From Thermodesulfovibrionia bacterium (GTDB taxonomy: Bacteria; Nitrospirota; Thermodesulfovibrionia; UBA6902), in contig CALZMZ010000009.1 of assembly GCA_945788685.1 (NCBI GenBank), forward strand, positions 1 through 50,393: a stretch of DNA of 50,393 bases, read 5' to 3'. Within the stretch, counting starts at the first letter, position 1. Each line of letters opens with the position of its first letter. The translations under genes and the position numbers were made by a program. Below, in pieces: positions 17,414-45,641 of this stretch. The notes under the pieces are model-generated. The model did not search any database and had not been told where the DNA came from. It saw only the letters and a list, made by a program, of their open reading frames with translations.

Positions 17414-17428
17414 AAATTCAAACATTTC

Positions 17429-17535
17429 TGTCATTCCGCACTTGATGCGGAATCCATGGTTCAGCAAGTATGGATTCTCGATGCGAGTCTTTGCGAGAGT
17501 CGCTCCGACCGGCTCAAAAGACTACCGGAATGACA
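17429..17535. repeat. GTCATTCC...GGAATGAC double-hairpin MITE/REP-like element carrying a 32-bp insertion
   Basis: Terminal inverted repeat TGTCATTCCG/CGGAATGACA; homologous to the copies at 20760 and 41016. Confidence 0.85.
17478..17509 (-). mobile_element. 32-bp hairpin micro-insertion
   Basis: Absent from sibling repeat copies. Reverse complement is GTCGGAGCGACTCTCGCAAAGACTCGCATCGA followed by GAATC; 23/33 identical to 18468-18500. Confidence 0.7.
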
Positions 17536-17615
17536 AACGTGGCGAGCCATGGGGAATAATATCCCAAATGATTTAACATCAATAATATCTCTTTGAAAAA
17601 AGCTGTTTTGTACAT

Positions 17616-19520
17616 ATGCTAACCAACCAATCATTAAACATCTTTATCCCTGCTGCAGGACGCGGTGAGCGACTGCGGCCGATTACTGATCATATTCCAA
17701 AACCTCTTATGCCGGTCCTTGGAAAACCGGTCCTGCAGCATGTGCTTGAAAGAGTATCAACATTATCATTTAATCTGATCGGCATCAATCTTCATTATAA
17801 AAGCAGGGAACTCTCTGAATGGATAGGCCGGTGTCCCTTTAATCATGAAATCGATCTGTTTCATGAAGATGAAGTGCTCGGGACCGGCGGGGCATTAAAA
17901 AATGCTGAGGGATTACTAAAGCAGGGGCCTTTCCTCGTGCACAATTCTGACGTGCTAAGTGATATTGATCTTGATAGCCTTGTTGAACACCACAGGAAAT
18001 CAGGAAATTTCATCACCCTTGCAGTGCATGACTTTACTAAATTTAACAGCCTGGTCCTTGATAAAAACGGCTGTCTGATTAAAGTGGACAGGAAATCTTC
18101 CGGAAAGCTGATGGCTTATACAGGCATTGCAGTATACGAGCCTGAGTTTTTGAAGTTTCTTCCTGCCGGCAGGTCAAGTGTAGTTGATTCATGGATGACA
18201 GCTATTTATGAGGGACATTGCATAGGGACCCTTGACATAAGCGGAAGCTGCTGGAGCGATATAGGTACTGCTGACTCTTATGCTGCTTCAGTATTCCATG
18301 CATTGCGGCGTGAAGGAGAAACGGTTTATATCCATCCTGCGGTGCAGGGATGCGAAGATATCGATTATAAGGGGAATGTAATCATTGAAGAAGGGTGTTC
18401 TTTTAGAGGTCCGGTTACACTTCAGAACTGTATTGTCCTTCCCGGTACCAGGGTAGGGGTAATTAATGTCGGAGTGGCCCTTCGCGGAGATCCGCTTCGG
18501 GAATCACCCCTGCATGCAAACTGCATTACAGGACCGGACTTTACCATACCTCTGAATGAAGCAGAATTCTATCAGCTGTCAGGACCGGATAAAAGACAGC
18601 TTATAGGAACAGGCGGGTCTGACAGGCAATATTTCAGGATTACAAATGACAGCAGTAGTGTTGTTCTTATGGAATGCAATGAAAATGATCCAGACTTTAT
18701 GCGTCATATAGAATATACAAAGTTCTTCAGGAGCAATAATATTCCTGTTCCAGAGCTCAAAAGCTCAGACCCGGACCAGATGCAGGCCGTGTTTGAAGAT
18801 GCAGGGGACATATCGCTCTACAGTTATCTTCAATGCAGTCGCACAAAACAGGAATTAGAAGATATTTATAAAAAAGTCCTTGATGTTGCAGCATCAATTC
18901 ACTGCTTAAAAAAGGACCAGGTCAAAGAATGTCCTTTACTTGAAAAGCGGGTGTTTGACCATGATTATTTCAGATGGGAAACAGGTTATTTCCTATTGGA
19001 ATTTATACAGGGTGTTAAGCATATTAAAGTTGAAAATGTTCAGGCCTTGGATAAAGAGCTTGATCTTATTGCCTGTCAGGCTGATGCAATCCCCAAAACA
19101 GTAATTCACAGGGATTTTCAGTCACAGAACATTATGATCATGAAAGACAGGGAATTGAGAGTAATCGATTTCCAGGGTGCAAGGATTGGACCGCCTGCTT
19201 ACGATATTGCATCAATATTATGGGATCCCTATTTTCGACTTGATGATGGTATGCGTGATAAACTCCTTGCATACTATATTACTGAAATGAAGGAAAGAGT
19301 TAATGATGGTTTTGATGCTCAAAAATTTACAGAAACATTAATATGTTGCCGGTTACAGAGACATATGCAGGCTTTGGGAGCATATGGATTTCTCTCAAGG
19401 GTAAAGGGGAAAAAATATTTTATGAAATTCATGCCAGAAGGAATAAGGCTGTTAAGGGATGATATTCGTTCTTCAGGTGATAACTATCATGTACTGGGCA
19501 GACTGGCAAATAGACTTTAG
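17616..19520 (+). CDS. Fused MurU-like nucleotidyltransferase and AmgK-like anomeric kinase
   Basis: N-terminal PAAGRGERLRPITDHIPKPL and GTGGAL. C-terminal GGSDRQYFR, HRDFQSQNIM, IDFQGAR.GP..YD.AS, LQRHMQALGAY. Adjacent to namZ. Confidence 0.88.
   Translation: MLTNQSLNIFIPAAGRGERLRPITDHIPKPLMPVLGKPVLQHVLERVSTLSFNLIGINLHYKSRELSEWIGRCPFNHEIDLFHEDEVLGTGGALKNAEGLLKQGPFLVHNSDVLSDIDLDSLVEHHRKSGNFITLAVHDFTKFNSLVLDKNGCLIKVDRKSSGKLMAYTGIAVYEPEFLKFLPAGRSSVVDSWMTAIYEGHCIGTLDISGSCWSDIGTADSYAASVFHALRREGETVYIHPAVQGCEDIDYKGNVIIEEGCSFRGPVTLQNCIVLPGTRVGVINVGVALRGDPLRESPLHANCITGPDFTIPLNEAEFYQLSGPDKRQLIGTGGSDRQYFRITNDSSSVVLMECNENDPDFMRHIEYTKFFRSNNIPVPELKSSDPDQMQAVFEDAGDISLYSYLQCSRTKQELEDIYKKVLDVAASIHCLKKDQVKECPLLEKRVFDHDYFRWETGYFLLEFIQGVKHIKVENVQALDKELDLIACQADAIPKTVIHRDFQSQNIMIMKDRELRVIDFQGARIGPPAYDIASILWDPYFRLDDGMRDKLLAYYITEMKERVNDGFDAQKFTETLICCRLQRHMQALGAYGFLSRVKGKKYFMKFMPEGIRLLRDDIRSSGDNYHVLGRLANRL
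18453..18513 (+). repeat. GTAG-family REP inside the CDS, interrupted by a 33-bp insertion
   Basis: GTAGGGGTAATTAAT[33 bp]GAATCACCCCTGC, encoding VGVINVGVALRGDPLRESPL. Confidence 0.7.
18468..18500 (+). mobile_element. 33-bp hairpin micro-insertion (in-frame)
   Basis: GTCGGAGTGGCCCTTCGCGGAGATCCGCTTCGG followed by GAATC. Confidence 0.65.
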
Positions 19521-20708: not shown

Positions 20709-20888
20709 AATGAAAAGCATTCCTCGAAGCTCTGCTTCGGGGTTAATCACATATTCCTTTGTCATTCCCGTGGTCAGTTGAGCGGGAATCCAGAGTCTTT
20801 TCGCAGGGGGCTAGATTCCGGCTAAAGGACTGCCGGAATGACATACTTATGTTTGATACCTCGCAGTTCTGCTACGCAGGTGTTCATT
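20709..20888. repeat. Composite repeat: AATGAA/TTCATT-bounded hairpin pair enclosing a GTCATTCC element (20760-20843)
   Basis: Left hairpin CCTCGAAGC-TCT-GCTTCGGGG, inner TGTCATTCCCG...CCGGAATGACA, right GATACCTCGCAGTTCTGCTACGCAGGTGTTCATT. Confidence 0.8.
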
Positions 20889-21282: not shown

Positions 21283-21390
21283 GCAGGCGATATCATAACA
21301 TTTTTTTGATAATAATAATTTGTAACTATTTGTGATGACAAGAATATTGTGAGTTAATTAAAGCAGGAGATGTACCGGGATTAATAATAA

Positions 21391-21426
21391 AAAAGGAAAA
21401 CAGGGGGAACAGTTGTTCCCCCTGTT
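21391..21426 (-). terminator. Rho-independent terminator of hcp
   Basis: 13-bp arms AACAGGGGGAACA/TGTTCCCCCTGTT followed by a T-rich tract on the minus strand. Confidence 0.8.
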
Positions 21427-21437
21427 CTCATGACGAA

Positions 21438-23081
21438 CTAAGCGTCAACAGCTTCTTTATTCAGAATTGCTGCAATGTCCTCGTCAGGTGTGGTGATCGG
21501 TTTGATATTATATTTTTCAACAAGGAAATTGAGCACATTGGGAGTTATAAACGAGGGCAGTGTAGGCCCAAGCCTTATGTCTTTGATCCCTAAATGCAAC
21601 AATGAAAGCAGAATTGCCACGGCCTTCTGTTCATACCATGACAGAACCATGGACAGGGGCAGATCATTTACGCCCACTCCAAATGCCTTTGAAAGTGCTA
21701 CAGCAATCTGGACAGCTGAATATGCATCGTTGCACTGACCGATGTCCAGAAGTCGAGGGATTCCACCAATGTCTCCGAGGTCTTTATCAAAGAACCTGAA
21801 CTTGCCGCATGCCAGTGTGAGGACGACGCTGTCCTGAGGTACTTTTTCAACAAACTCAGTGTAATAATTTCTGCCCGGCTTGGCCCCGTCACACCCTGCA
21901 ACCAGGAAGAAGTGCTTTATCGCTCCGCTTTTTACGCCTTCAATTACTGTATCCGCTACTCCCATGACAGCGTTTCTACCAAAACCAGTCATAATGTTCT
22001 TGCCCGGTTTGTCTTCCATGAAACCCGGAAGCTCAAGGGCCCTCTTGATTGCAGGTTCGTAATTCTGTCCCTGGATATGTGCTATTCCCGGCCAACCAAC
22101 GAGCCCGCATGTAAATATGTTGTCTTTATATGAGTCATGTGGTTTCTGGATACAATTTGTCGTCATGACGATTGAGCCGGGGAACTCTGCAAATTCCTTT
22201 GCCTGGTTTTGCCAGGCTGTCCCGTAATGACCATAGAAATGTGGATACTTCTTTAATTGTGGATAGCCGTGCGTCGGGAGCATTTCGCCGTGAGTATAGA
22301 CATATATCCCTTTGTCCGCTGTCTGTTTGAGTATCTGTTCCATGTCATAGAGATCATGTCCTGAAACAAGCAGCGCTTTCCCCTTTTTGACTCCAAGGGG
22401 AACCTCTGTCGGAACAGGGTGTCCGTATGTTTCCGTATGAGCGGCGTCAAGGATTTCCATAACTTTGAGATTAATTTCACCGCACTTGAGGGTCATTGCT
22501 ATCCAGTCTTCGAGTGAGAGGTCTGTTCTGAGCATTGTACTTAGTGCTTCATGCGTATAATTGTAAACAGCTTCATCTTTATATCCAAGAATCTGGGCAT
22601 GGTATGCATATGCTGCAATCCCCTTAAGACCATAAAGCGTCGTCAGCTTCAGAGACTTTATATCTTCATTTACCTCTTCAGGATAATTTGACAGTTCCTC
22701 ACTCTGTCTGATTAAACCGTCAATTGATTCCTCAGGAGTAAAGGCAGCCGGTGCCTCTGAAAAATCAGCAATGCCGCCAGCTGCTTTTAGTTTGCTCTTG
22801 AGATCTTCCCTCCTTTTTACGCACTCGTTTATAAGGTCTACAAATCTTTCAGGATCAAAGTCCACATTTGTCAGGGTCGAAAAAAGGGCGCTTACTGAGA
22901 ATTTATCAATCTCTTCATCAACGACTTTCATTTTTCCGGCCTCTACAGCAACCAGCGAAAGTCCCTTCAGTGCATAGACCAGAAGATCCTGTAATGCAGC
23001 AACATCTGACTTCTTGCCGCATGTGCCGATTGTTGAACAACTTCCTCCTTTTGCTACCTGTTCACATTGATTGCAAAACAT
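21438..23081 (-). CDS. hcp: Hybrid cluster protein (hydroxylamine/NO reductase)
   Basis: MFCNQCEQ...CGK, THGEMLP, GCDG, GQCNDAYS, SWYEQKA. Confidence 0.97.
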   Translation of the reverse strand: MFCNQCEQVAKGGSCSTIGTCGKKSDVAALQDLLVYALKGLSLVAVEAGKMKVVDEEIDKFSVSALFSTLTNVDFDPERFVDLINECVKRREDLKSKLKAAGGIADFSEAPAAFTPEESIDGLIRQSEELSNYPEEVNEDIKSLKLTTLYGLKGIAAYAYHAQILGYKDEAVYNYTHEALSTMLRTDLSLEDWIAMTLKCGEINLKVMEILDAAHTETYGHPVPTEVPLGVKKGKALLVSGHDLYDMEQILKQTADKGIYVYTHGEMLPTHGYPQLKKYPHFYGHYGTAWQNQAKEFAEFPGSIVMTTNCIQKPHDSYKDNIFTCGLVGWPGIAHIQGQNYEPAIKRALELPGFMEDKPGKNIMTGFGRNAVMGVADTVIEGVKSGAIKHFFLVAGCDGAKPGRNYYTEFVEKVPQDSVVLTLACGKFRFFDKDLGDIGGIPRLLDIGQCNDAYSAVQIAVALSKAFGVGVNDLPLSMVLSWYEQKAVAILLSLLHLGIKDIRLGPTLPSFITPNVLNFLVEKYNIKPITTPDEDIAAILNKEAVDA

Positions 23082-29957: not shown

Positions 29958-31133
29958 GTGACCATGAATAAACATGTAAGAATGAACATCTTAGTCTTTA
30001 TAAGAATTCTCACCATATTCATCCTTATCACATCGGGGTGTGGAAGCAATGACAGTGAAAAAATTTGGTTAGATGATAGTTTTGGAAAAGATGGAATAGT
30101 TACCACTTTTTTAGAAGAGCCCTTTAGCATAGGCAAAGCAATCGCAGTTCAGTCAGATGGGAAAATTGTATTAGCAGGTTCTGTAGTCTTTAGCAGTGAA
30201 ATTTCCATTGTTAGATATAACACAGACGGCAGTCTTGATACGACCTTTGGTACAAATGGGATAGTAACAATTCCTGAAACATCATTGTTAGCTAATAACA
30301 TTGTAGTTCAGCTGGATGGAAAAATAATTATAGGAGCATCAGACCTCTTCAGATTTAATACAGATGGCAGTACGGATACGACCTTTGGCGATAAAGGAGT
30401 TGTGAAACTGCCAAAAGGATTGGTTGAAGTTATTGCAATACAGTCCGATGAAAAGATAATTGTTGGAGGCTCTGATTCTGCTCTTGTCAGATATAATGAA
30501 GATGGAAGTCTGGATGTAAGTTTTGGCTCAAATGGTATTGTCACGATGACTTCGCTAGTAAGCATTCCCAATGATATTGTGCTTCAGTCAGATGGAAAAA
30601 TAGTAATTACCGGATATACTGGATCTACTCCTGGAGACTTCAGTGTCGTGAGGTATAACACAGATGGTAATGTTGATACAAGTTTCGGTTCGAACGGAAT
30701 AGTCAATTCATATATAGATGGCAGCTATGCCACAAACCTTGCGATACAAGCAGATGGAAGAATAATAGTTGCGGGTAATCATGCCATCTTAGTGAGATAT
30801 AAAGCTGATGGAAGTCTGGATACCGCCTTTGGTACAGACGGGATAGTCACTATGACCGAAGAGCTAAACTCTATAACTGATTTTGTTTTGCAGTCTGATG
30901 GAAAGGTTGTTATAACAGGATATACTGGAAATTTTGGCGTTGCAAGATATCACACAAACGGAGAAATTGATACAGAATTCGGTGAGGGTGGGATTATAGT
31001 CACTGATATTCAAGAATACAGGGACAAGCCTGCAGATATTATTATACAATCGGATGGGAAAATTTTAGTGGGAGGGACAAGTTGTTATGAACGATATGGT
31101 TGTGGTTTTGCACTCGTCCGCTATTTGCCATAG
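29958..31133 (+). CDS. Delta-60 repeat beta-propeller lipoprotein
   Basis: Lipobox TSGC, seven QxDGK(I/V)-type repeats with RYNxDGSLDTTFG. Confidence 0.9.
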   Translation: MTMNKHVRMNILVFIRILTIFILITSGCGSNDSEKIWLDDSFGKDGIVTTFLEEPFSIGKAIAVQSDGKIVLAGSVVFSSEISIVRYNTDGSLDTTFGTNGIVTIPETSLLANNIVVQLDGKIIIGASDLFRFNTDGSTDTTFGDKGVVKLPKGLVEVIAIQSDEKIIVGGSDSALVRYNEDGSLDVSFGSNGIVTMTSLVSIPNDIVLQSDGKIVITGYTGSTPGDFSVVRYNTDGNVDTSFGSNGIVNSYIDGSYATNLAIQADGRIIVAGNHAILVRYKADGSLDTAFGTDGIVTMTEELNSITDFVLQSDGKVVITGYTGNFGVARYHTNGEIDTEFGEGGIIVTDIQEYRDKPADIIIQSDGKILVGGTSCYERYGCGFALVRYLP

Positions 31134-40955: not shown

Positions 40956-41190
40956 AAGGATTTAAGGATTCAAGTGAATGCAAGAATGATACAGAATAAT
41001 TAATAAAATGCGTCAGACATTCCCGTGGTCTGTTAAGCGGGAATTCAGAGTGTATAAATACAGGGCTAGATTCCGGCTAAAGGATTGCCGGAATGACATA
41101 TTTGTTTTGGACACCTGGCAGCTCTTCTGCGGGGTGCTCGATTTTTATCAGTTTACTCGGACCCTTGAATCCTGGAATCCTAGAACCCTT
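40956..41190. repeat. Nested repeats: inverted octamer arrays around a GTCATTCC element (41016-41098) plus its downstream hairpin
   Basis: Left AAGGATTT AAGGATTC AAGTGAA; right GACCCTT GAATCCTG GAATCCTA GAACCCTT; the inner element is highly similar to 20760-20843. Confidence 0.8.
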
Positions 41191-44725: not shown

Positions 44726-45444
44726 TTCACGGCTTCCTTTTGTTTCCTTTTCTTTCGAAATAAATATGTTCCTTCAATCAGGCCCCATAAAATGTATGAC
44801 AGTGCAAACAGAAATAGTACTATTTCAGGATACATAAATATGAGAACAAAAGCCACTACTATGGCTACAAGCAGCCAGAAGGGTTTTCTTTTTTTGAAAT
44901 CCAGTTCCTTAAGACTATGGAAACGGACTGTGCTCACCATCAGAACTGCCAGTAGAAAAGGCAAGCACAGTACAAATATATTTTTTTCGCCTATGCCTCC
45001 CCATATCTCATGAATAAATAAAACCAGGCAGGCAATGGATGAACCTGCTGCAGGGATGGGCAGGCCTGTAAACGCCTTGCTTTCGGTAGTGCCCATCTGT
45101 ACGTTATACCGTGCAAGTCTCAATGCTCCGCAAATGACAAAAAAGAATGTAGCTCCCCATCCCAGTCTCCCAAAAGGATTTAATGCCCAGCTGTATAAGA
45201 GCACCGAAGGAGCCACTCCAAAGGCTACAAGATCAGAGAGAGAGTCAAGTTCGATACCAAATTTTGTAGTACTGTTGGTCAATCTCGCGACCCATCCGTC
45301 CAGTCCGTCAAATATATTTGCGACCAATATTGCCCAGGCGCTGTGAATATAGTCACCTTTGAATGCAGCAAGGATAGCATAGAACCCGCAGAACATCCCT
45401 CCCAGTGTGAGAGTGTTCGGTAATATGTAAATGCCTTTTCTCAT
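44722..45444 (-). CDS. pssA: CDP-diacylglycerol--serine O-phosphatidyltransferase
   Basis: DGLDGWVAR...[24 protein letters not shown]. Confidence 0.95.
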
Positions 45445-45641
45445 TTTTAGCTTTAAGCTTTTAGCAATTAGCTGTAAGCTCCGTGGTTTTTCTTCTGTTG
45501 CTGATAGCTTGCCGCTTACCGCTAATTCGGTAATATGTAAATGCCTTTTCTCATTATTAGCTCTAAGCTAGCAGCAATCAGCTGTAAGCTCTGTATCTTT
45601 TTTTTAGTTGCTAATCGCTTACTGCTTACTGCTTACCGCTA
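45416..45641. repeat. 110-bp-period tandem duplication: pssA 5' end plus an inverted heptamer cassette
   Basis: TTCGGTAATATGTAAATGCCTTTTCTCATT is identical at 45416-45445 and 45526-45555; the adjoining AGCTNTA/GCTTACT arrays are diverged. Confidence 0.9.

Follow-up and report, generated by a model that had tools for sequence, protein, structure and literature searches.

A near-palindromic DNA unit of 32 to 33 nucleotides set precisely into other repeats of Thermodesulfovibrionia is probably a nonautonomous mobile element

Can a DNA unit of 32 or 33 nucleotides (nt) move between genomic sites and, if so, by what means? The question is raised by a 50,393-nt stretch of a Thermodesulfovibrionia bacterium (contig CALZMZ010000009.1 of assembly GCA_945788685.1, positions 1 to 50,393; hereafter, the window), in which a preliminary description had recognized two related copies, A and B, of a near-palindromic DNA unit that we call E, each lying inside another repeat. 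We searched for E in the window's own assembly (G000; 2.6 Mb, 84% complete), in 41 related genomes, and in public contigs, and compared its sites with those of congeners; most of the genomes analyzed were metagenome bins. Genomes are designated by G labels, contigs by C numbers (of G000 unless stated otherwise), and fetched loci by L numbers. From its exact boundaries, the diversity of its host contexts, its nesting, and two orthologous sites that are empty, we conclude that E is probably a noncoding, nonautonomous mobile mini-element that was inserted independently and depends on a factor acting in trans.

The positions and orientations of the two window copies (Table 1) are exactly as first described. 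Copies A and B were identical at 23 of 33 columns in a global alignment, a score that none of 2,000 shuffles of B reached. GAATC stood directly 3' of both copies and no flanking duplication was seen, again as first described; because E begins with G and the 3' flank also begins with G, a 1-nt duplication of G is possible. Deleting B in silico gave GATTC|CGGCT...GGAATGAC, a junction identical to that of two sibling repeats elsewhere in the window, and deleting A gave GTAGGGGTAATTAAT|GAATCACCCCTGC, a palindrome of the GTAG-headed repetitive extragenic palindrome (REP) type. Both restorations had been foreseen, and the palindrome proved to be imperfect. Copy B cuts the 3' arm of the right-hand hairpin of its host, a mosaic repeat, at GCCG^GAATC (read on the minus strand; the caret marks the position of E), and this mosaic folds as a whole (−22.3 kcal/mol, z = −3.0). 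The loop of its left-type hairpin is filled by E in other genomes, at CACTT^GATGCGG (L030, L034, L058, L136, and L139).

The preliminary description had proposed a search for empty orthologous sites, and two were found in the congener G002. At the copy A locus, the G002 ortholog keeps the palindrome and lacks exactly 33 nt, reading GGGGTGATTCAC|GAATCAACCC; the gene around it is ∼79% identical between G000 and G002 over a 401-nt segment and 83% identical over a longer match. Upstream of uvrC, the E copy at C55:9425-9454 corresponds to a gap of exactly 31 nt in contig C99 of G002, within a GCAGGGGTAATT/CATGA palindrome. In a second congener, G001, a degenerate E-like insert of 33 nt occupies the copy A site in the opposite orientation, abutting GAATCACCCC of the other strand, that is, at the mirror site. 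This insert matched E in 22 of 36 columns, a score reached by 9 of 2,000 shuffles. For a further locus on C61, no alignable ortholog was found, and matches were limited to repeats.

The spacer that holds copy B (window positions 17414 to 17615; orthologs at L019:1914-2428 in G002 and at L020 in G001) differed in its entire content among three congeners: a mosaic of SRM hairpins (described below) with E in G000, nothing in G001 (67 bp), and a DUF559-like gene between C-rich/G-rich hairpins in G002. Three contents in three congeners indicate that this spacer is an insertion hot spot at which the whole host repeat is variable. A DUF559-like fragment between C-rich/G-rich hairpins, each carrying E, was also present in L062.

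An alignment of 65 copies (33 columns) gave the E consensus GTCGGAGCGACTCTnCGCGnAGACTCGCTTCGA, with the architecture GTCGRAGCGACYC-(loop)-GAGACYCGCWTCGR, a near-perfect palindrome. Its sole constant mismatch, C/C at columns 11 and 24, makes the two strands of E different and thus gives the unit a direction. Seventeen of the 33 columns were invariant, many of them fixed by the selecting pattern itself, and the GTCG head, invariant in all 65 copies, was also fixed by that pattern. E ranged in size from 31 to 35 nt, with a long form of 52 to 54 nt that carried an extra 18 to 21 nt within the loop (4 copies in G000 and ∼9 of ∼36 in G001). We considered this GTCGATACGACTAAACTC-type insert as a possible separate element; all four of its G000 copies lay inside E, and it is therefore treated as a long form of E. 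Columns 12, 25, and 33 were linked, reading T-T-A in 36 of the 65 copies, C-C-G in 25, and otherwise in 4. The two resulting forms, GACTC...GACTC...A (T-type) and GACCC...GACCC...G (C-type), occurred together in many genomes and could represent two master lineages or two recognition specificities.

The contexts into which E is set were tabulated from 104 copies in other genomes, among the matches listed in a scan of public genome contigs, a scope that applies to all counts out of 104 here. These copies fell into 24 flank classes, the two largest comprising 27 and 25 copies. In four loci (L128, L133, L142, and L063), E lay inside E: removing the inner C-type copy gave a T-type sequence that occurs intact elsewhere (compare L034 and L122). 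Together with the two empty sites, this diversity supports the proposal of the preliminary description that E is a very small nonautonomous unit entering repeats with precise ends and a set orientation. That description also expected an invariant GAATC 3' of E, which did not hold: GAATC followed just 27 of the 104 copies, and the common feature was instead GA, directly 3' in 79 (88 on reading nine TCGG|AC copies as TCG|GAC). The base 5' of E was G in 50 copies, T in 35, A in 17, and C in 2. When E was removed in silico, the joint fell in a predicted hairpin loop in 48 copies, versus 24% of control positions, and outside any helix in 13, versus 25%; since the 104 copies are not independent, this loop preference is just a tendency. 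Within a REP host, the predicted stem of E stacks on the host stem to form one long hairpin (−19.4 kcal/mol, z = −4.5).

The preliminary description had suggested a genome-wide search, and it did return further copies. We identified 31 in G000 by nhmmer (expectation value ≤ 0.5) and 25 by a covariance model (R1), which was built from the 65 aligned copies and used to count E in relatives. According to the model, E was present in 26 of the 41 related genomes, at 1 to 33 copies each; a strict E pattern matched 21 of the 41 and a reversed control pattern matched none. The complete 3.2-Mb chromosome of G001 contained 31 copies at an expectation value of ≤1e-4 and ∼36 at ≤0.01 with opposite-strand duplicates removed, and the congener G003 (one contig, 78% complete) had none by the model. 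Five of 250 other genomes sampled from the phylum matched, all of them Thermodesulfovibrionia; within this sample, none of the genomes of other Nitrospirota classes matched E. The scan of public genome contigs returned at least 116 stretches, nearly all labeled Thermodesulfovibrionia, Nitrospirae, or Nitrospirota, and six matches in GC-rich non-Nitrospirota contigs were set aside, before the flanks were tabulated, as probable chance or binning matches. The single match in a viral contig collection argues that E is not a phage feature. A look-up of sequencing runs returned one DNA run, with 0.05 of the E words, and no RNA run. A host function for E is unlikely, given the E-free congeners and the patchy distribution. 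On the G001 chromosome, four copies lay within 3 kb (G001:C1:2184837-2187618) and two within 0.4 kb (2214580-2214919), which marks the region at ∼2.18 to 2.24 Mb as repeat dense.

Table 1. Features of the window, Y1_Tnp genes in G000 and G028, and sequence contexts in which E occurs
Feature	Location	Strand	Remarks
Gene carrying copy A	17616..19520	+	Fusion of NTP_transferase (residues 13-223) and APH-type phosphotransferase (residues 328-557)
E copy A	18468..18500	+	33 nt; C-type subfamily with GATCC; 46.4 bits with model R1
E copy B	17478..17509	-	32 nt; T-type subfamily; 50.3 bits with model R1
5' arm of the GTAG-headed REP palindrome hosting copy A, GTAGGGGTAATTAAT	18453..18467	+	
3' arm of the REP palindrome hosting copy A, GAATCACCCCTGC	18501..18513	+	E lies directly 5' of its GA
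Mosaic repeat hosting copy B	17430..17534		Bounds GTCATTCCG...CGGAATGAC; made of Ssn-type (NTS/SRM-like) hairpins
Left hairpin of the copy B mosaic, GTCATTCCGCACTTGATGCGGAATCC	17430..17455	+	Without E here
Sibling mosaic repeat without E	20761..20842	+	Empty junction GATTC|CGGCT between 20818 and 20819
Second sibling without E	41016..41097	+	Empty junction between 41073 and 41074
Y1_Tnp + Bac_DnaA_C genes, ∼320 residues	C64:15100-16056 (L001); C114:12991-13962 (L002); also G028 C51 (L022)		
E context: 3' arm of GTCATTCC...GGAATC hairpins			G^GAATC
E context: loop of GTCATTCC...GGAATC hairpins			CACTT^GATGCGG
E context: GTAG REP palindromes			TTCAT^GAATT
E context: C-rich/G-rich hairpins			CCCTT^GGAGGGG and GCAAA^GAGGGG
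E context: heptamer and octamer arrays			In phase
E context: a few unique sequences			
E context: E itself			GCGAA^GACTCGC

Independent insertion dependent on a trans-acting factor is favored because it is the sole reading that covers the precise ends found in some two dozen contexts, E inside E, the mirror copy in G001, and two clean empty sites. In such a process, E would enter or leave a site whole, with precise ends and a duplication of at most 1 nt, and insertion would usually take place directly 5' of GA, with a preference for the loop or the 3' arm of hairpin-capable DNA. Cutting and joining would be carried out by a factor encoded elsewhere, an enzyme that may act on single-stranded or extruded hairpin DNA. 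Once within a host repeat, E would travel passively with its host, which could account for many of the copies. That the events were insertions rather than excisions is what we infer from the comparisons.

It is important to note that several results weigh against this reading. The two G002 empty sites are just as compatible with precise excision. The model and the flank table were built from copies chosen by a pattern fixing both ends, so that variation at the ends could not show. Many copies are passengers in composite repeats, and independent events are therefore far fewer than copies; for instance, the composite GTCATTCCGGCTTGTCCG-E-GAATCTT recurs in many genera. Such passive spread explains much of the copy number but not entry into new hosts. 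Moreover, the strong conservation of the E sequence across orders still needs explaining.

The hairpin of E is also weak. The preliminary description had both window copies folding into hairpins, and both do fold, but at −3.6 kcal/mol for A (170 of 200 shuffles as good) and −4.9 kcal/mol for B (53 of 200), they fold no better than shuffles. The fold of the family consensus (−8.0 kcal/mol, z = −1.2) was similar to that of the T-type consensus (about −8 kcal/mol, z = −1.2 to −1.4), and the minimum-energy fold of C-type E was other than the full-length hairpin. Across the 12 palindromic pairs in the alignment, 88.3% of cells were paired, which is the level of shuffles, and compensatory change was limited to a single cell. 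Common variants break pairs, with A/A at columns 6 and 29 in 31 of the 65 copies, A/C at 10 and 25 in 27, and C/A at 12 and 23 in 25.

The search for a moving enzyme gave further negative results. No ORF (open reading frame) family recurred within 1 kb of E at 116 loci, among the matches listed, and the top neighbor clusters were spurious frames across repeats and housekeeping genes. In the contigs compared, neither Y1_Tnp genes nor small GIY-YIG genes had an E copy next to them. No long insert was found to split a G000 copy: over the 4 kb searched from each 5' half, no matching 3' half was found more than 49 nt away, and lone 5' halves look like chance matches. The longer copy carrying a TnpA/RAYT or nuclease gene that the preliminary description proposed to look for was thus absent from G000 within this range.

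If a known class of enzyme moves E, an HUH transposase would be one candidate, and to this class the preliminary description attributed it. A Y1 transposase (IS200/IS605-like or RAYT-like) would act in trans, cutting and rejoining single-stranded E and inserting it 3' of ..TC on the complementary strand, that is, 5' of GA on the E strand. A duplication of 1 nt or none, the fixed orientation relative to asymmetric hosts, and a hairpin that is REP-like in size and has a conserved mismatch all agree with this. Y1_Tnp matches occur in G000 (three) and in 35 of the 41 relatives, and E was found in 24 of the 35 Y1-positive genomes versus 2 of the 6 Y1-negative ones. However, this association is not significant (Fisher p = 0.17), and two genomes carry E without any Y1_Tnp match: G024 (97% complete, 13 copies) and G014 (92% complete, 4 copies). 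The three G000 matches comprise the two genes of Table 1 and a truncated RAYT-like remnant; both genes, like that of G028, are flanked by their own 25- to 28-nt inverted repeats starting with GGGGTCA and not by E. On the complete G001 chromosome, a small GIY-YIG gene and two Y1 matches lay tens of kilobases from any E copy, with neither Y1 match within 80 kb of any of the ∼36 copies. Orientation there was against the direction of replication in 22 copies and with it in 14 (p = 0.24, not a significant bias; the origin was placed at dnaA, 1.825 Mb, by assumption). Further, judged by IS608, 33 nt is too short for the two separate end hairpins of IS200/IS605 derivatives. Given that no recurrent gene adjoins E at the 116 loci listed and that two Y1-free genomes carry it, the data do not link E to an HUH transposase, and the attribution is doubtful.

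Two inverted E pairs that enclose a gene were considered and rejected as links to a partner gene. The two copies in L022 (G028) are separated by 3.3 kb, and the Y1 gene that they enclose carries inverted repeats of its own; those of L062 lie within the C-rich/G-rich hairpins on either side of the DUF559-like gene fragment. Both pairs indicate that the association with genes belongs to the host repeats and not to E. As for the Y1 genes themselves, the C114 unit is absent from an 81 to 83% identical stretch on contig C40, which suggests either mobility of this unit or a second strain within the bin as the source of C40. On C33 (L003:1438-1797, minus strand), the truncated RAYT-like gene keeps the HUH motif and the catalytic Tyr region, with GTAG-headed REPs translated inside it.

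An unlikely but more far-reaching proposal is that E is moved by an unrecognized activity that would read GACYC...GACYC...R and splice the 33-mer into extruded loops 5' of GA; this activity could belong to a host protein that is conserved or to a single-strand DNA integrase of a new class.

Movement might also require no dedicated enzyme. In a copy-choice process, replication would stall at a hairpin and the nascent strand would jump to an E copy and return through GA/GAATC/GACTC microhomology. The targets are indeed hairpin-forming DNA, and G (50 of 104) or T (35 of 104) before E together with GA after it (79 to 88 of 104) means that donor and acceptor share short identities at both joints; the lack of a partner gene at the 116 listed loci is likewise as expected. 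Yet copy-choice usually yields variable, ragged ends, whereas the same two ends recur across 24 flank classes; homology of one or two bases is very little; and near-identical E across the orders of a class demands a steady activity. We consider this explanation quite unlikely.

It is very unlikely that E has no mobility of its own and is an optional module of mosaic repeats, comparable to boxB in BOX or to the linkers of bacterial interspersed mosaic elements, spread with its hosts and by gene conversion within host families. The long flanks common to large groups of copies (27 and 25 of 104) and the GTCATTCCGGCTTGTCCG-E-GAATCTT composites speak for this, but it leaves unexplained how E entered some two dozen contexts unrelated to one another, heptamer arrays and unique sequence among them, how it came to lie inside itself, and how the mirror-image copy in G001 arose.

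Among the hosts themselves, hairpins of the form GTCATTCC(C/G)G...C(G/C)GGAATC match the NTS/SRM hairpins of the Ssn nucleases, as far as these are set out by Chenal et al. 2025 (PMC11893778). Two regular expressions identified 7 such hairpins with E and 117 empty ones in G000, and the published SRM pattern gave 55 matches in G000 versus 11 in shuffled contigs. The GTAG palindrome of copy A is empty at C50 and C76 of G000 and filled in C55, C30, and other genomes.

The least probable explanation, that E is a divergent SRM whose hairpin is recognized by a second GIY-YIG single-strand nuclease of the Ssn type, which drives the spread or function of E, draws on the NTS-like layout of E (GTC, then a palindrome) and on four small GIY-YIG genes in G000, one with canonical SRMs on both sides, but E falls outside the published pattern HGTCWY..YYVSBRH..WNVSBRG..RNCYNB (GTCGR where GTCWY is needed), none of the four genes has E within 600 bp on either side, none of the strict E matches in the 41 genomes has a small GIY-YIG gene nearby (uvrC on C55 of G000 being the sole co-location), and Ssn enzymes are nucleases for which joining is not among the activities set out in the source consulted (PMC11893778). 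The GIY-YIG profile itself is uninformative, since all 41 genomes match it through uvrC.

Two of the small GIY-YIG genes of G000 have surroundings of their own. At C108:9597-9818 (L026), an Ssn-like gene with a 92-codon open frame has a GTCATTCCCGC...GCGGGAATCC hairpin upstream and an inverted copy downstream, the ssnA/SRM arrangement as presented in PMC11893778. At C26:3095-3304 (L023), a small GIY-YIG gene directly follows a tRNA gene, with a second copy of the tRNA 3' end (GGTCGTCGGTTCGATCCCGATCAGCTCCACCA) after it; it resembles a mobile gene that targets tRNAs. Adjoining the C26 gene is a palindrome, GTCGTATCGAC, whose reverse complement forms the core of the loop insert in long E copies.

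Copy A, with its REP host, is located in the interdomain linker of a nucleotidyltransferase-kinase gene and is in frame, contributing 11 codons (residues 285 to 295, VGVALRGDPLR). The linker of G001 has the peptide PEADRRSVDPA instead and that of G002 has none, and the frame is open in all three. Copy A was the only genic one of the 31 G000 copies; two further long frames over E were chance read-through upstream of gene starts. Rickettsia palindromic elements, described by Ogata et al. in 2000, are reportedly 100 to 150 bp long and inserted in frame in genes. Copy A and its host resemble them in being translated in frame within a tolerant linker of a conserved gene; E differs from these elements in length and in that just 1 of its 31 G000 copies is genic.

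Elsewhere in the window, an Rfam scan gave no match at or near E. Positions 21385 to 21500 gave subthreshold matches to CsrC (25.1 bits; gathering threshold, 61) and STnc320 (25.1 bits; gathering threshold, 50) and are probably a repeat-rich spacer, not a small RNA. Diverged tandem repeats at 30137 to 31075 (period, ∼138 to 162 nt; families of 69 and 52 nt) have the appearance of a repeated protein domain within a gene. At 45416 to 45633, a 108-nt unit is present in two adjacent copies with 83% identity.

In behavior, the closest known kind of element is the small dispersed repeats (SDRs) of Nostocaceae. SDRs reportedly also nest in other repeats and in heptamer arrays. Like SDRs as characterized in the sources below, E is a very short noncoding module set precisely into other repeats, with no known transposase and within one lineage. 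E differs in phylum, sequence, and length (32 to 33 nt), in being near-palindromic, and in its target, which is ^GA in hairpin DNA versus HIP1. Because E occurs in another phylum, the likeness is one of behavior, and we do not claim membership in SDR families 1 to 8. One member, SDR5, is 21 nt long and inserted precisely between the third and fourth bases of HIP1; no enzyme is known, and SDRs are reported as absent outside Nostocaceae (PMC4390886, PMC5861425, PMC13756078).

Other known systems share fewer features with E. Like the REPs and REPINs described by Bertels and Rainey in 2011 (PMC3116915), E is an imperfect palindrome of ∼35 nt with a fixed 5' tetranucleotide (GTCG in E, GTAG in classical REPs), dispersed, mostly intergenic, and present in tens of copies. 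It thus has the form by which REPs are defined (an imperfect palindrome of 20 to 40 nt with a conserved 5' tetranucleotide), but no RAYT gene is flanked by E, and its GTCG head is part of the stem. Unlike REPINs as presented there, E occurs as singletons inside other repeats, including GTAG REPs, instead of as inverted doublets. With NTS/SRM hairpins, E shares the GTC head followed by a hairpin and many dispersed copies; it differs in that no ssn gene adjoins it, in that SRMs are hosts that E interrupts, and in its position in the loop or the 3' arm; the SsnA cut is reported to fall a few bases upstream of the NTS (Chenal et al. 2025, PMC11893778). Like miniature inverted-repeat transposable elements (MITEs) derived from insertion sequences, E is nonautonomous, with inverted termini (TCGRAGCG/CGCWTCGR) and many copies; unlike them, it has no multibase target duplication, no parent insertion sequence with these ends was found, and at 33 nt it is severalfold shorter. 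E also departs from the IS200/IS605 derivatives known as PATEs, which have distinct subterminal hairpins on the left and right, insert 3' of a fixed tetra- or pentanucleotide, and favor the lagging-strand template: it is a single 33-nt hairpin whose target on the complementary strand is just ..TC, and its orientation on the G001 chromosome showed no significant strand bias. In the freely accessible article texts searched, we found neither E sequence words nor such a unit in Nitrospirota, and a search of papers for four literal E words returned primer matches only. The remark in the preliminary description that it did not recognize such an element as described therefore holds for the E family in this literature but not for the kind, for which the Nostocaceae SDRs (Elhai et al. 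2008, Genome Res 18:1484) are a precedent.

If E moves as a 33-nt unit, it would be among the smallest mobile DNAs, and Thermodesulfovibrionia would be the second lineage, after Nostocaceae with their SDRs, in which units without a known enzyme are nested in repeats. Bacterial mosaic repeats would be built in layers, hairpin within hairpin and within MITE-like element, with Ssn-type hairpins and REPs themselves serving as targets, and copy A, lying in frame, shows that such units are able to add loops to proteins. Clean ends, two subfamilies that differ at three linked positions, and genomes with and without E offer a concrete start for an enzyme hunt. Were an unrecognized activity to prove responsible, E would represent a "parasite of parasites" in minimal form and would give access to a new chemistry of DNA insertion, and a site-specific single-strand DNA inserter would have practical interest.

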